Source: an uncultured Acidimicrobiia bacterium (GTDB lineage Bacteria > Actinomycetota > Acidimicrobiia > Acidimicrobiales > Ilumatobacteraceae). Taken from it: a stretch of 64,000 bases of DNA. A model generated the notes under the pieces. The model saw only the letters and a program-made list of their open reading frames with translations. It ran no database searches and was not told the DNA's origin. The stretch's first letter is position 1. Each line of letters opens with the position of its first letter. Positions 2,089 to 36,303 of the stretch are shown here, one piece after another. The stretch is from the NCBI GenBank assembly GCA_963739975.1, contig CAVUCK010000014.1, forward strand, positions 77,128 through 141,127, given 5' to 3'. The position numbers and the translations under genes are program-made.

Positions 2089-3635
2089 TCGCCGACCGGT
2101 CCTGCGGTCAGGCGCTCGTCCAGCGCGTCGTCGACGTCGTCGGCGTCGTCGGTGCGCTCGCCATCGGCGTCGATGGCCGACTCGCCGACGCCGTGGTAGC
2201 CGCCGCCCGAGTCGCGGACCACGACTCCGGCCCGCTCGGTGCGCTCGGGGCCTTCGCGACGGCGAAGCGCGGCGCACAGCTGGTACGCCGTCCAGTAGGC
2301 GATGGGCGGGCCGACCAGGGCGGCGATCTGGAGGACCGTGGTGATGTTGCCGATCGAGATGCCGAGCGTCCCGGCGATGACGTCCTGTGATCCGCCGAGG
2401 AACAGGACGGCGACGAACGTGATCGCCGCCGCGCCGGCAGCGGTGCGGTGCGGTGCGTCGCGCGGGCGGTCGAGCAGGTGGTGCTCCCGGTCGACCTCGC
2501 GCTTGTCCTTCGTCAACCGGCGCTCGATCCACGGGACGAGCAGCAACCCGGTGAAGACGATGCCGGGGATCAGGACCGCGGAGTAGATCAGGTTGTTGAT
2601 CATGAACCCGAAGGCCCGCGTCTCCCAGGGCGGGAACAGGCGAAGGGACCCCTCGAGGAAGCCGATGTACCAGTCCGGTTGGGAGTACGAGGTGGCGGCG
2701 CCGACGTCGTAGGGCCCGTACAGCCAGACCGCGTTGACCTCGAACAGCGCCCCCATCGCGGCGATCACCCCGGCGACGAGGAACATCAGCCCGATCGACT
2801 TCATGGCGAACGTGGGCCAGATCCGTTCGCCGATCACGTTGTGCTCGGTCGCCTCGCGGGAGCGGAACTGGGTGTGCTTCTGGCGCCACACGAGCGCAAG
2901 GTGCACGGCGAGCAGGGCGACGATGGCCGCCGGGATGAGCAGGATGTGGACCGGGTACAGCCGGCCGATGATGTCGGTGCCGGGCCACTCGCCGCCGAAG
3001 ATCAGGTAGGTGGCCCGCTCACCGATCAGCGGCAGGGCGAGGATGATCGCCTGGGTGATCCGCAGGCCGGTGCCCGACAGCAGGTCGTCGGGCAGCGAGT
3101 AGCCGGTGAAGCCGGCGGCCAGCGCCAGCAGCAGCAGCAACACGCCGACCACCCAGTTGATCTCCCTCGGCCGCCGGAAGGCGCCGGTGAAGAAGACCCG
3201 CGCCATGTGCAGGGCGATGGCGCCGACGAACACGAGCGCCGCCCAGTGGTGCATCTGGCGGATCAGCAACCCGCCCTTCACGTCGAACGAGATGCGCAGG
3301 ACGGACTCGTAGGCGCCGGACACCTCGACGCCGCGCAGCGGGGCGTACGAGCCGTCGTAGACGACCGTCTGCTGCGTCCCCTCGAAGAAGAACGTCAGGT
3401 ACGTGCCGGTGATCAGCAGCACGACGAAGCAGTAGAGGGCGATCTCGCCCCACAGGAACGAGAAGTGGTGGGGGAAGACCTTGCGCAGCGCCTTGTGCAG
3501 CCCGGACCCGGCGCCGACCCGGCCGGCGATCGAGTCGACGTACCGCTCGACCAGCCCGCGCCGCTTCGTTCTGGTAGTAGCAACCGGCTGCTGTGAGCCG
3601 GTTGCTTCGGCCAGAACGGGGTCTTCGGCGCTCAT
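2085..3635 (-). CDS. qcrB: cytochrome bc1 complex cytochrome b subunit
   Basis: ORF 2085..3662 trimmed to ATG 3635, which overlaps the qcrA stop (ATGA). Motifs seen: FSFLWGEIALYCF, RQMHHWAA, VHILLIP, and SQPDWY (the PEWY-equivalent loop). It has the long C-terminal extension typical of actinobacterial QcrB. Confidence 0.9.
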   Translation of the reverse strand: MSAEDPVLAEATGSQQPVATTRTKRRGLVERYVDSIAGRVGAGSGLHKALRKVFPHHFSFLWGEIALYCFVVLLITGTYLTFFFEGTQQTVVYDGSYAPLRGVEVSGAYESVLRISFDVKGGLLIRQMHHWAALVFVGAIALHMARVFFTGAFRRPREINWVVGVLLLLLALAAGFTGYSLPDDLLSGTGLRITQAIILALPLIGERATYLIFGGEWPGTDIIGRLYPVHILLIPAAIVALLAVHLALVWRQKHTQFRSREATEHNVIGERIWPTFAMKSIGLMFLVAGVIAAMGALFEVNAVWLYGPYDVGAATSYSQPDWYIGFLEGSLRLFPPWETRAFGFMINNLIYSAVLIPGIVFTGLLLVPWIERRLTKDKREVDREHHLLDRPRDAPHRTAAGAAAITFVAVLFLGGSQDVIAGTLGISIGNITTVLQIAALVGPPIAYWTAYQLCAALRRREGPERTERAGVVVRDSGGGYHGVGESAIDADGERTDDADDVDDALDERLTAGPVGE

Positions 3636-32948: not shown

Positions 32949-34077
32949 GTGAGCACGATCACCCGGATCGAGATCAGCCACCACCGGCTGCCGCTCGCCC
33001 CACCGTTCCCGGCCGCCTGGGACCCGCAGCCGCGGCGCGCCTTCCCGGCGACCGTGGTGCGGGTCCACGACGACGCCGGCCACGTCGGCGTCGGCTCGGG
33101 CGACGCGATGTACGGCTTCGCCGACTACGAGCGGTACTTCATCGGCGTCGACGCCCTGGATCTCGACCGCCACGGTGCCGTGCTGGCCAACATCGACTTC
33201 CACGCCGGTCGCCCGTGGCCGCTCGACGTGGCGCTGTGGGACCTCGCCGGGCAGATCGAGGACCGGCCGATCTGGTCGCTGGTCGGTGGGCACGGTCGGC
33301 GCATTCGCACCTACGCGTCGTCGGGCGTCCTGCGTCCCCCCGCCGAGATGGCCGAGGTCGCCCGGCGGGCCCGCCAGCACGGCTTCCCGGCCCTCAAGGT
33401 CCGCTTCGGGCGCCCATCGCTCGACGAGGACCTGGCCGTCGTCCGGGCGATCCGAGATGCGCTCGGCACCGACCTTGCCCTGATGGTCGACTGCAACCAG
33501 GGGTGGCGGATGCCGTGGGACGTGCGGGCGCCGTGGGACGTGGACCACGCCGCCACCGTGGGCGCCGCCCTGGCCGCCGAGGGCGTCACGTGGATGGAGG
33601 AGCCGCTGCACCGTGGCGACTACGCCGGGATGGCCGAGCTGCGGCGGCGGGTCGACGTGCCGATCGCCGGGGGCGAGCTGACGCGGGAGGACTACGAGCT
33701 GCGCCAGCTGCTCGTCGGCGGCTGCCTCGACGTGTTCCAGCCGGACTGCGTGTGCACACAGGGGATCACGGGGCTGCGGCGGTTCGCCGGCGAGGTGGTC
33801 GCCGCCGGCGCCACGTTCACGCCGCACACGTGGGGCAATGGCATCGGGCTGCTGGCCAACGCCCACCTGACGGCGGGCACGGTCGGGGCACCGTTCCTCG
33901 AGTTCCCGTTCGACCCGCCCGAGTGGACGACGGCAGCGCCGCGACTTCCTGCTGACGGAGACGATCGAGGTCGACGGCGACGGCTGGATCGACCTCTCCG
34001 ACCGCCCCGGCCTCGGCGCCACCCTCGCCGAGGCCACCCTCACCGCCACCGCCACCACCACGTCCACCTGGACCTGA
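32949..34077 (+). CDS. enolase-superfamily (mandelate racemase/muconate lactonizing enzyme family) protein; apparent +1 frameshift near 33933
   Basis: The frame of ORF 32910..34172 carries the domain up to ...[12 protein letters not shown] (metal-ligand context [19 protein letters not shown]). The expected C-terminus [31 protein letters not shown] continues in the +1 frame to a TGA at 34075-34077. Length is 1129 nt (3n+1). Confidence 0.7.
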
Positions 34078-34082
34078 AACCC

Positions 34083-34133
34083 GGTTCTCAAGCGTTTTCA
34101 GGGGTCACCGGCGGCCCCAAACCACCGGCGGAA
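34083..34133. repeat. left terminal inverted repeat (51 nt)
   Basis: GGTTCTCAAGCGTTTTCAGGGGTCACCGGCGGCCC... Its reverse complement occurs at 35121-35171. By hand alignment the outer 35 nt are perfect and 48/51 match overall. Confidence 0.85.
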
Positions 34134-34135
34134 CC

Positions 34136-35077
34136 TCACGACCCGCGAAGTGACCGCCGCCGCTCGTCGTAGGTCACTCGCAGCCGGCGGCCGAACCTGG
34201 CGAGGTCCTCGCGCACGGACTCGTCCGCGCGGACGATGCGCCAGCCGATCTCGTCGCAGGCCAGGTCCCGGTCCTGATCGGCGCGCTGGCCCAGGTCGCC
34301 GCCGTGCCACCAGCTGTGACCGGGCTCGACACCGAGCCGAACCTCCGGCCACGCCAGGTCGACGTGGATCAGTTCGCCGCTGAGCAGGATCAGCGGAAGC
34401 TGCCGTTGGGGCTCCGGAAGTCCGGCGCGCACCAGCGCATCGAGCACGTCTTGCTCGAGGCCGCTCTGGCTCGGGCGCGTTTGGAACGACATCCGCTCGA
34501 GCCAGTGTTCGAACCGGGCAACGCCGGTCCGGCCGCTGCGGCGCACCGCAGCCAGGTACTCAGCGGCCGCTTCGGGGGTGACCAGCTGACGGTGCCAGCA
34601 GTCCTCGGCGGCGCGTTGGAACCGGTGGTCGTTGAACACTCCAGCGAGACGGAACAGCATCCGCAGCGGAGTCGCGACGCGCAGCCCGTCTGCGAGCACC
34701 TGGACGTCCCGCGCCGGCTCGAACCAGCTCGTCTGGGTCACGCGTCCCCATGGAGGCATCACGACCTTGCGGTCCTCACCGATCGTGCACTCGACGATGC
34801 GACGCGGCATCGACCGCAGGCGGTGCAACACGCCGGCGCTCGCCCCGCTGATGAACACGTCCCGTCCGACGTGGAGCTGCAGGGCCATTGCCCTCGAGGC
34901 GAACGTGTCCACGCTCCCCGTCAGGCGTACGACGCCGGGAATGACCGTGGTGACGACGCCCGAGCGCTGCGCCCGCTTGACCGTGGTCGCCGGGACGCCC
35001 AGCGCTCGCAGCTGTTCGAGCGAAACCACCCAGTGCTGAGCGGCGAAGAGCGCGAGGACTTCGGGACGGTTGATCAC
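34136..35077 (-). CDS. AbiEi_4-like wHTH + DUF559 (Vsr/PD-(D/E)xK-like endonuclease fold) protein
   Basis: ORF 34136..35077 (313 aa). N-terminus: [36 protein letters not shown]-terminus: [20 protein letters not shown]...[23 protein letters not shown]...GWRIVRADE. Confidence 0.65.
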
Positions 35078-35120
35078 ACCCGCCTGGGTGCTCTGAGAAC
35101 CCCAAATCGGAATGCACGAC

Positions 35121-35171
35121 TTCTGCCGGTGGTTCAGGGCCGCCGGTGACCCCTGAAAACGCTTGAGAACC
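35121..35171. repeat. right terminal inverted repeat (51 nt)
   Basis: Reverse complement of 34083-34133, with mismatches at repeat positions 36, 37 and 48. Confidence 0.85.
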
Positions 35172-35188
35172 TGATCGACCGCCGTCGG

Positions 35189-36286
35189 TCAGCTGGCGTC
35201 CTGGTGTTGACGCCGGAAGAGGGCGGCGTAGATCCCGTCGCCGCCGAGGAGCCGGTCGTGCGTCCCGATCTCGGCGATGCGGCCGCCGTCGATGGTGATG
35301 ATCTGATCGGCCCGGCGAACCGTGGAGAGCCGGTGGGAGATGACAAAGGTCGTGCGACCCTCGATGAGTCGGCGGATGGCGGCGAACACCTCGGCCTCGG
35401 TCTGGGCGTCGAGAGCGGACGTCGGCTCGTCGAGCACGAGGATCGGCGCATCGGTCAGCAACGCACGGGCGATGGCCAAGCGCTGGCGCTCGCCGCCCGA
35501 CAGGTTCGTGCCGCGCTCGTCGATCACGCTGTTGTACCCGCGCGGCAGCCGCTTGATGAACTGATGGGCCTGTGCCGCCTCGGCGGCCCGTCGGACGTCG
35601 GCTCTCCCGACGCCCTCGAGCCCGAACGTGATGTTGTCGGCCGCCGAGATCGGCAGCAGGAAGGGGTCTTGCAGCACGAGCGCCACATTTCGCCGCAGCG
35701 AGTCCAGCGTCAGGTCGGCGACGTCGACGCCGTCGATCGAGATCCGACCGGTCCACGGGTCAGCGAACCGTGACAGCAGCGACATCAGCGACGTCTTGCC
35801 AGCACCGCTGATCCCGACGATCGCCGTGACCGTGCCGCCCGGCGCGACGAAGCTGATGTCATCGAGGATCGGAGGTTCGGTTCGGTCGTAGCCGAACGTG
35901 ACTCCGTCGAAGACGACCTGGCCACGGCGCCCGACGAGGGGTCGAGCGGTCCGCTTCTCCCGCACCTCTTCGTCGCAGTCCAGGATCTCGAAGACCCGGC
36001 GGGCGCGGGTGCCGACCTGCGCCGCCAAACCGACGCCTCGCGCCAGCTCCTGGACCGGCCCGTACACCGTGGCCAGGTAGGCCAGGAAGACCAACAGATC
36101 GCCGATCGTGAGCACGCCGGAGCGCACCTGGAGTGCTCCGACACCGAGCATCGCCGCGGCGGCCAGCGCCGTGACCATCGAGACGGCCTGCTGGTAGCCG
36201 GCCCCCCAGATGGCCGCCGAGTTGTAGGCGCCGGCGGCGGTGGGTGCGCTCGGCAGACGCGGGCTTCTCGCGTGCTGGCTCGACGG
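35189..36286 (-). pseudogene. 5'-truncated ABC exporter (MsbA/ABCB-type); only the last TM helices plus the ATPase domain remain
   Basis: ORF 35189..36178 holds Walker A GISGAGKTS, signature LSGGERQR and Walker B ILVLDEPTSALD. The open frame extends upstream only to a stop at 36287-36289, directly against the next gene (stop at 36304). About 250 aa of the transmembrane domain are therefore missing. Confidence 0.7.
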
Positions 36287-36303
36287 TCACCTCGGCCAGC
36301 GGG

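Follow-up and report, generated by a model that had tools for sequence, protein, structure and literature searches.

The stretch of DNA analysed here, called the window throughout, comprises 64,000 nucleotides (nt) of contig CAVUCK010000014.1 (positions 77,128 to 141,127 of the forward strand; GenBank assembly GCA_963739975.1) from an uncultured bacterium of the family Ilumatobacteraceae. Between an enolase-family gene and an ABC exporter gene, the window holds a compact unit in which a single open reading frame (ORF) is enclosed by two inverted terminal repeats, here called arms. The encoded protein joins a DNA-binding module of the AbiEi antitoxin type to a predicted nuclease domain, and comparison of related loci indicates that such units have changed position. 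The unit is made up of the following features, with coordinates in the window:

34083-35171: the whole unit, 1,089 bp, an ORF between two inverted 51-nt arms.
35121..35171, no strand: the 5' (gene-proximal) arm, a 51-nt terminal repeat in which, reading inward from 35171, an outer GGTTCT box is followed by a variable centre and then by an inner ...CAGAA box.
34083..34133, no strand: the 3' (gene-distal) arm, an inverted copy of the 5' arm, 48/51 identical.
35078..35120, minus strand: the presumed leader, 43 nt from the 5' arm to the GTG start, with a family-conserved box and the Shine-Dalgarno-like CCCAGGCGGGTGTG.
34136..35077, minus strand: the ORF, 313 residues, GTG start, with an AbiEi-type DNA-binding module and a predicted Vsr/DUF559-type nuclease.
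34478..35077, minus strand: residues 1-200, a winged helix (AbiEi_4, residues 8-53) and an AbiEi C-terminal-like domain, from Pfam, PADLOC and Foldseek.
34139..34465, minus strand: residues ~205-313, a predicted Vsr-like PD-(D/E)xK core of three strands, a helix and a strand, from AlphaFold2 secondary structure.

Repeat finding reported the arms as a 51-nt inverted repeat that is 94% complementary, with a spacing of 987 nt. Direct reading gave 48/51 matching positions, with the outer 35 nt perfect and the mismatches at arm positions 36, 37 and 48. The ORF is the only one that fills the interval: 2 nt separate its stop from the left arm, and 43 nt separate its start from the right. An earlier description made from the letters alone (the sequence-only reading) had given these arm coordinates, match counts and ORF geometry, and all of them were correct on re-reading. 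When the outer 34-mer of the arm, GGTTCTCAAGCGTTTTCAGGGGTCACCGGCGGCC, was searched with up to 3 mismatches, no third place was found in the 64-kb window beyond the two arms (dinucleotide-preserving shuffles with a match, 0/100), and an internal arm 20-mer was likewise confined to the arms within the window. In the leader, we read a box that is CATTCCGATTTGGGG in the window and TTTCCGCTTCCG-like in relatives. All subfamilies (window, L001 and L003-L005) have this TTTCCGCTTCCG-like box, CATTCCGATTTGG in the window, about 10 nt inward of the 5' arm; next comes ACCCAGGnGGGTGTG, in which the Shine-Dalgarno-like sequence and the GTG start are found. The conserved box could, from its sequence and position, be a promoter or leader element. 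Neither a sigma-70 promoter consensus nor an intrinsic terminator consensus was matched within 33900-35400, and an Rfam scan of the unit at E values up to 1 returned no match.

The N-terminal part of the 313-residue protein was readily assigned. Pfam placed AbiEi_4 at residues 8-53 (E = 2e-8, above the gathering score), and the PADLOC AbiEi models aligned to residues 6-205. An AlphaFold2 model built from an 87-sequence alignment had a mean predicted local distance difference test score (pLDDT) of 88.7, and Foldseek matched residues 1-200 of this model to the whole AbiEi antitoxin 6y8q (E = 1e-7, target template-modelling (TM) score 0.69) and also to Rv2827c (1zel). The last ~100 residues matched the catalytic domain of I-Bth0305I (3r3p, target TM score 0.69) and the DUF559 protein NGO0050 (3hrl, 0.64), so that the fold search supports a Vsr/DUF559-type nuclease identity for the predicted C-terminal domain. 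Vsr, DUF559, 3hrl and 3r3p fall in one PD-(D/E)xK clade of a published classification (PMC3424549). Sequence profiles gave less here: Pfam REase_MTES_1575 aligned weakly to residues 208-285 (E = 0.15, sub-threshold), the Pfam DUF559 model did not match the window protein, an NCBIfam scan of the protein found nothing meaningful, and the family profile matched no PDB sequence. Of the two families that the sequence-only reading had proposed to look for, AbiEi_4 was thus recovered and DUF559 was not, MTES_1575 being the only nuclease profile to align.

Within the 87 sequences, D240, E251-P-G, W256-W257-H258-G-G and D267 were invariant and H254 and D261 nearly so. A 23-residue motif picked out in the sequence-only reading is present and almost invariant across the family. 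This motif and the later GWR(I/V) motif probably correspond to those of the Vsr sequence (...RPDFVV...FTHGCFWHHH...ELGWRVL.VWE), the equivalence of single residues being putative. An exhaustive profile search found 15,176 clusters (50% identity) at E <=1e-3 and 6,143 at E <=1e-10, in which distant full-length relatives (~310 residues) scored for AbiEi_4, AbiEi_1, MTES_1575 (up to 41 bits) and DUF559 (up to 21 bits). The window protein is a divergent member of this large AbiEi-Vsr/DUF559 fusion superfamily. No transposase of a known class (DDE, DEDD, HUH, serine or tyrosine) was detected in it by Pfam, NCBIfam, PADLOC or Foldseek. Pfam, Foldseek and the distant relatives therefore agree with the earlier proposal of an AbiEi-like winged helix combined with a DUF559/Vsr-like nuclease region in a protein that is not a known transposase.

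To place the unit, we compared it with species-representative genomes and a metagenome collection; the comparators are nearly all metagenome-assembled genomes (MAGs), with one genome per species. A first protein search returned 425 relatives, nearly all from Ilumatobacteraceae MAGs and many on Logan contigs of only ~1.05-1.09 kb. In one of these, L002, which encodes a protein 94% identical to that of the window, both contig ends fall inside the repeat. Inverted arms of 45-63 nt with the same spacing were present in 5/5 homologues with genomic context (55-94% identical). The scan of species representatives yielded 80 loci, all of them in Acidimicrobiia/Ilumatobacteraceae and including Ilumatobacter nonamiensis and Desertimonas flava; the closest protein in this collection is 75% identical to that of the window. 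We found an inverted repeat in the flanks (gapped score >=20) at 67/77 complete loci, compared with 3/77 mismatched-locus controls. The insertion-sequence (IS)-like geometry described earlier for a single locus is thus a real, conserved trait of the family and not a chance arrangement.

The 26 well-defined units measure 1073-1116 bp. The 81 loci fall into 19 site groups, where the neighbours include enolase-family, ABC, helix-turn-helix (HTH), upp, PGM, rapZ, gap, rplY and similar genes. The units always lie in short spacers beside stop codons, and the genes on either side are often convergent. A single locus immediately upstream of rplY-pth-mfd is shared by 33 species representatives. Several MAGs hold up to three loci each, which are mutually divergent. 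The sequence-only reading had supposed that such genes are multi-copy; this is true in that a genome can carry several units, but the copies within a genome are only ~75% identical.

Two distant AbiEi-MTES_1575 homologues could be viewed with at least part of their surroundings. P0271, in an Acidimicrobiales MAG (L133), lies between purL and purF and is flanked at L133 3880-3960 and 4895-4950 by ~45-nt G-rich direct repeats seen by eye (GGGGGG.GTA.TGC.TAA.AGG..CTGGG...). No inverted arms were found around this homologue, which is the single distant superfamily member with context. P0180 (L132 1098-2198) is directly followed by an HTH_38 + rve integrase gene of the insertion-sequence kind, and the contig ends upstream of it. 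We dropped an extension of the hairpin-bounded design to the wider superfamily, as L133 is without inverted arms and L132 stops at a contig edge. The hairpin-bracketed design is established only for the Ilumatobacteraceae family.

The limits of the unit became clear when paralogues at different loci were aligned. Between the window unit and the units at another locus (L007, L008, L074, L120 and L131), similarity begins exactly at the outer arm end, and the flanks are unrelated. The arm start TTCTCAAGCGTTTTCAG is common to the window, L007, L008, L074 and L120, at two unrelated loci. Because the similarity of paralogues at different loci starts exactly at the outer arm end, the arms belong to the unit. 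As judged from these comparisons, the unit is a discrete entity bounded by its outer arm ends and has evidently occupied at least 19 sites.

The best sampled site lies between upp and PGM (phosphoglucomutase), two convergent genes, and we followed their spacer in the metagenome collection with the conserved upp 3' end as a DNA anchor. The two genes are directly adjacent in distant taxa (Upp ~52% identical), and this adjacency is therefore ancestral. Among close relatives (Upp 75-91% identical), the site is empty in L091, with a spacer of ~22 nt; L099 and L115 have a single ~52-nt palindrome there, whose ends resemble those of a unit, and L097, L092 and L117 have other palindromes. Units occupy the site, in either orientation, in 15 metagenome contigs and at least 15 genome loci. 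In hosts whose Upp proteins are 94-96% identical, we found units that were only 51-55% identical (L026/L100 and L100/L111), and in another such pair (L094/L106) the units were 72% identical and lay in opposite orientation. Divergence in place cannot account for units of 51-72% identity in such closely related hosts. By comparison of these loci, the unit at upp|PGM has been gained, lost, replaced and flipped over evolutionary time. The self-mobility suggested by the sequence-only reading is borne out to the extent that changes of position, gain, loss or replacement are visible between loci, and an empty site, which that reading had thought worth looking for, exists at upp|PGM in L091 while relatives are occupied. 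The same spacer carries other inserted coding DNA of 1.2-2 kb, without similarity to the unit protein, in L089, L108 and L129, and it seems to be a general insertion hotspot.

A unit with arms is also present at the window's own locus in the syntenic relatives L001/L006 and L130, so that we did not find the ORF there without its repeats, a finding that the sequence-only reading would have counted against itself. Between the window and L001, the enolase and HTH genes are 96% and 94% identical (synonymous divergence, dS, 0.27-0.28), compared with 74% for the unit ORF (nonsynonymous divergence, dN, 0.17; dS 0.59). The higher dS of the unit suggests that exchange may have taken place at the window locus too. 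We set dS aside as proof of replacement at this locus, because it is confounded by codon bias, and regard the upp|PGM comparisons as the stronger evidence.

The opposite orientations at one locus could also mean that the arms are programmed inversion sites by which the nuclease gene is switched on or off with respect to promoters outside. Both orientations do occur at one locus in related genomes, in L094/L106 and in L048/L107, whose units are 80% identical. However, no recombinase is encoded in or beside the units, the gene has its own conserved leader inside the arms, and orientation differs only between species, together with large sequence differences. Rare homologous recombination between 50-nt inverted repeats would suffice for such flips, and we regard a gene switch as extremely improbable. 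Turnover at a fixed site would also be expected of a selfish nuclease gene of the homing type, which would cleave palindromic sites such as empty hairpins or spacers and be copied in by repair of the double-strand break, without target-site duplications. In favour of this, the predicted fold has its match in a homing endonuclease's catalytic domain, conserved housekeeping genes flank the free-standing gene, whose presence, absence and alleles turn over at one site, and target-site duplications are lacking, as this model expects. Yet a complete arm stands on both flanks of the occupied site, so the putative target would be undisrupted; the arms are asymmetric, so that a solo arm would give one-sided homology only; and at least 19 sites have unrelated flanks. 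Homing endonuclease genes are not known to carry terminal inverted repeats. We consider homing very unlikely.

A third alternative is a classical autonomous IS, with the arms as terminal inverted repeats and the ORF as a new kind of transposase with which the unit cuts or copies itself to new sites. The terminal inverted repeats around a single ORF that fills the element, the several copies per genome at different sites, the empty sites and the boundaries at the repeat ends would all be expected of an IS. The other hallmarks were missing. In 26 well-defined units, target-site duplications did not exceed chance (20 with none and 6 with 1 nt, equal to the shuffled expectation). All pairs of units with at least 79% nucleotide identity share both flanks and are therefore orthologous, whereas identity does not exceed 78% between units in different contexts and is ~75% within one MAG. 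The retention of orthologous units is long-lived, the protein has no known transposase fold, and the solo copies described below are complete single arms and not two-ended miniature inverted-repeat transposable elements (MITEs). The unit does not behave like an active IS, and its inheritance is mostly vertical. Comparison of the ORF with its L001 orthologue gave a dN/dS of 0.29, and apart from its changes of place the unit is, on this evidence, inherited vertically under purifying selection. The IS interpretation in the sequence-only reading therefore stands for the terminal inverted repeats, the several sites and the empty sites, but not where an IS should show target-site duplications, near-identical copies or something other than one orthologous locus in 33 species. 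We find it quite unlikely that the unit is a classical IS.

The arms themselves provided a further line of evidence. Each arm is dyad-symmetric on its own: an outer box (CC)GGTTCT(G/C)A has its complement ...AGAAyC about 46 nt inward, with a lineage-specific central stem between them. We aligned 34 arms and solo hairpins and scored covariation against shuffles (n=500) and slid partners. The two-helix structure was 69.7% paired compared with 58.5% in shuffles, none of which (0/500) reached the observed value, and the covariation score was 0.335 compared with 0.192 in shuffles (again 0/500) and 0.07-0.17 in the slid-partner controls. All 11 central stem pairs showed changes on both sides. These comparisons indicate that the dyad symmetry of the arms is under selection and is kept up by compensatory changes. 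Furthermore, the two arms of a unit are 89% identical on average (range 81-98%), compared with 69% between different units at the same site, and thus the two arms of a unit evolve in concert. Conservation within the arm is lowest in the centre (45%) and highest in the outer box (68%). An origin of the arms by insertion into the centre of an older palindrome was rejected, because each arm is a complete dyad and arm type tracks ORF phylogeny across loci.

The known operators of AbiEi proteins offer a comparison. AbiEi has two 23-bp inverted repeats 3 bp apart (49 bp in all) that overlap its promoter, and Rv2827c has 23-bp pairs 13 bp apart (59 bp), also overlapping the promoter (PMC7319586). By analogy, a dyad of 52 nt that is separated by 43 nt from the start codon downstream of it would fit the AbiEi mode of operator binding.

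Hairpins resembling the arms also occur without the gene. In 929 kb of DNA flanking units, a sample that may be biased towards units, a minimum of 16 matched stem pairs yielded 50 solo palindromes. Many visibly belong to the arm family of the neighbouring unit (L060 8497-8553, L066 8527-8579, L042 8589-8641, L044 7806-7870 and L084 7016-7066), and when arms were searched by blast against masked flanks, 12/50 loci had an extra copy of their own arm within 6 kb. Two solos are of the window type. One, at L010 9353-9406, matches an arm of L006 at 36/36 positions and comes from the same MAG as L006 and L007; the other, at L074 5218-5270, lies upstream of upp, ~650 nt from the unit of that locus. 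Both contain the outer and the inner half of the asymmetric arm and are thus complete single arms, not two fused termini. Their origin by a deletion like that which leaves a solo long terminal repeat was rejected, since recombination between inverted arms inverts and does not delete. The L010 solo lies inside the 5' end of an ABC1-kinase gene as annotated; the true start of that gene could be an ATG in the loop of the hairpin.

Intergenic spacers often contain hairpins, and those within operons are no exception. One candidate lies elsewhere in the window:

3567..3618, no strand: a possible solo hairpin, 52 nt, CGTTCTGG...CCAGAACG, with 20/23 stem pairs, whose membership rests on length and end motifs only.

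It is placed inside the first ~25 codons of qcrB, right after the overlap of the qcrA stop with the qcrB start, and its sequence is unlike the window's arms. We rejected it as a copy of a known arm, as no similar sequence occurs in ~1.3 Mb of loci. Hairpins can sit at junctions of co-directional genes, as at L010 and qcrB. A second, unrelated family of ~61-nt palindromes (GTTCCCCGAGCCCAGGTCT...GGTGGTTCCC...) was seen at L043 1111-1171, L056 966-1026, L051 10956-11019, L083 12091-12137 and L042 12107-12145. It recurs in several Ilumatobacteraceae genomes, which therefore contain more than one dispersed hairpin family. The sequence-only reading had conceded that the 51-nt repeat might be a generic repetitive extragenic palindromic (REP) element without a link to the ORF. 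That concern was half justified: solo copies exist, yet the ORF is invariably enclosed by two inverted copies of its own repeat type.

Much of this would also be expected of a host gene that does not move, namely an autoregulated AbiEi-nuclease with a role in repair, defence or regulation, in which the 5' arm would be the operator and the 3' arm a terminator or second operator, the hairpins would be widespread genomic features of the terminator or REP kind, and paralogues would arise by ordinary duplication and rearrangement. The vertical inheritance with one locus in 33 species, the purifying selection, the commonness of hairpins in intergenic and operon spacers, and the lack of target-site duplications and recent copies all agree with this model, as does the autoregulation of AbiEi proteins through inverted repeats of similar span (PMC7319586). 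However, paralogue similarity at unrelated loci is bounded exactly by the arms, and the compact 1.07-1.12-kb unit is always found in tiny spacers beside stop codons. Occupancy, subfamily and orientation at upp|PGM differ among close relatives. Moreover, as the arms diverge from unit to unit, the 3' arm keeps 81-98% identity with its 5' partner, for which a simple terminator would have no need. We therefore consider a purely host gene unlikely.

We favour another reading, in which our belief and our doubt are evenly balanced: the units would form an old, Ilumatobacteraceae-specific family of hairpin-ended, IS-like modules that behave in the manner of REP elements and their REP-associated tyrosine transposases (RAYTs), but with a different enzyme, the AbiEi module binding the arms and the nuclease acting there. 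The binding, cleavage and transposition chemistry of the unit is inferred. In the mechanism that we propose, two AbiEi modules would bind the two half-sites of one arm, much as AbiEi and Rv2827c do at their paired 23-bp repeats. Through binding at the 5' arm, which fills almost all of the promoter space, the protein would regulate its own gene. Bound arms would be nicked or cut by the fused nuclease, possibly while in an extruded hairpin or cruciform state. Rarely, the whole unit would be moved or replaced; more often, single arms would be dispersed or maintained elsewhere in the genome.

Several points weigh against this reading. We know of no Vsr-type nuclease that catalyses transposition, and such an enzyme cannot rejoin strands alone. 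The remaining 63 kb of the window contain no solo copy of the window's own arm. These arms fold poorly as hairpins (z-scores 0.1 and -1.3) and are among the least self-complementary. At upp|PGM, the solos of L099 and L115 find no match in the arms of their nearest relatives with a unit. A REP-like abundance of hairpins is extrapolated from about 1 Mb of unit-flanking DNA, and a weaker codon bias in the unit, instead of replacement, could partly lie behind its dS of 0.59.

The two flanking genes are both damaged, as the sequence-only reading had noticed. The enolase-family (MR_MLE) gene is frameshifted near 33933 (~33930-33935), where the frame passes from +3 to +1 relative to the intact L001 orthologue, which is 96% identical. 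With its stop codon ending at 34078, the gene stops 4 nt short of the arm. The frameshift, at ~150 nt from the arm, seems to be due to one extra base and could be a pseudogene mutation or an assembly error unrelated to the unit. The gene on the other side is truncated:

35189..36178, minus strand: the ABC exporter gene, with a nucleotide-binding domain and the last 42 residues of the membrane domain; its intact stop is 17 nt from the arm.

What this gene lacks is its 5' end, on the side away from the unit. A window-specific segment of ~1.1 kb with the ABC gene (about 35176-36299) lies between the 3' end of the HTH gene and the outer end of the 5' arm, and in the syntenic L001 and L130, which are without it, the 3' end of the HTH gene meets the arm directly. 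We found no related ABC exporter beside any other unit and rejected the remnant as flanking DNA carried in with the unit. Both lesions are thus real, but they were not caused by the unit, the frameshift being ~150 nt off and absent in L001 and the ABC loss being on the far side. The unit sits in a spacer between two intact gene 3' ends, and neither lesion is an insertion scar.

Among known systems, REP/REPIN-RAYT is the closest in behaviour; its description is reportedly due to Nunvar (2010) and to Bertels and Rainey (2011). As in that system, the gene of the unit is bracketed by inverted copies of a palindromic repeat, the cognate repeat type also occurs alone in extragenic DNA of the same genomes, and gene and repeat co-evolve. 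There is likewise one gene per repeat type, with several distinct types per genome and long, mainly vertical inheritance. RAYTs are present as one copy per type, with several distinct types per genome and a specific repeat type for each, and are mainly inherited vertically (PMC3337134). The differences lie in the enzyme, an AbiEi winged helix with a Vsr/DUF559 nuclease in place of an HUH/Y1 IS200-like transposase (PMC3337134), in the length of the repeats (~52 nt), in the modest hairpin density (50 per 929 kb of unit-flanking DNA), and in the relocation or replacement of the gene-plus-arms unit itself at several sites. As an HUH/Y1 enzyme is absent, this is not a RAYT system, although by analogy the unit may work like one. 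With IS elements and MITEs, the unit shares a compact form with terminal inverted repeats around one ORF, both occupied and empty sites, and short non-coding relatives of its ends elsewhere; it differs in having no known transposase class, no target-site duplications and no near-identical copies, and its solos are single arms instead of paired termini.

The AbiE type IV toxin-antitoxin systems (AbiEi-AbiEii; Rv2827c-Rv2826c) resemble the unit in that the N-terminal 200 residues are modelled with the full AbiEi fold, and the size and symmetry of the arms would match the 49-59 bp operators at AbiEi promoters (PMC7319586). No gene for an AbiEii/DUF1814 nucleotidyltransferase was present in any annotated locus. 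The unit thus departs from AbiE in its lack of an AbiEii partner, in the fusion of AbiEi to a nuclease, and in a second putative binding site downstream of the gene, with further copies elsewhere. The Vsr/DUF559/MTES_1575 nucleases, such as the mobile-element nuclease I-Bth0305I (3r3p) and NGO0050 (3hrl), share the predicted fold of the C-terminal domain. They also have similar (D)...(E/D)xG..W.H and GW.(I/V).R motifs, and the invariant D240, E251 and H258 may be equivalent to the Vsr catalytic residues. Unlike them, the window protein falls below the Pfam DUF559/MTES_1575 thresholds, does not lie in an intron or intein, and comes with an AbiEi module and flanking hairpins. A search of one full-text library returned no account of such units, no paper with both DUF559 and AbiEi, and nothing relevant on DUF559 together with inverted repeats or on actinobacterial REP.

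The broadest interpretation is that the units represent a new class of prokaryotic mobile DNA, in which an AbiEi-guided Vsr-type PD-(D/E)xK nuclease would mobilise and maintain its own ~52-nt hairpins and occasionally its own gene, with no DDE, HUH, serine or tyrosine enzyme. We offer this tentatively and hold it to be somewhat doubtful. Among well-described systems, only REP/RAYT is known to pair an enzyme gene inherited vertically with a co-evolving hairpin population of its own. If the proposal is true, the units would be a second, independent hairpin-enzyme system, which would mean that this lifestyle evolved convergently, and they would add a new biochemical route of repeat dispersal. They would constitute a RAYT-independent REP system and give a function to part of the AbiEi-DUF559/MTES_1575 superfamily of Actinobacteria (~15,000 clusters at 50% identity). 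Databases label such fusions as antitoxin-domain proteins or very-short-patch-repair endonucleases. The proposal provides a testable hypothesis for them, namely sequence-specific binding and cleavage of cognate palindromes. In annotation, the units should not be called IS elements or AbiE antitoxins. In the Ilumatobacteraceae, a widespread family of soil and aquatic actinobacteria, the units and hairpins mark rearrangement-prone spacers beside housekeeping genes, at upp|PGM, rapZ|gap, rplY-pth-mfd and qcrA/qcrB.

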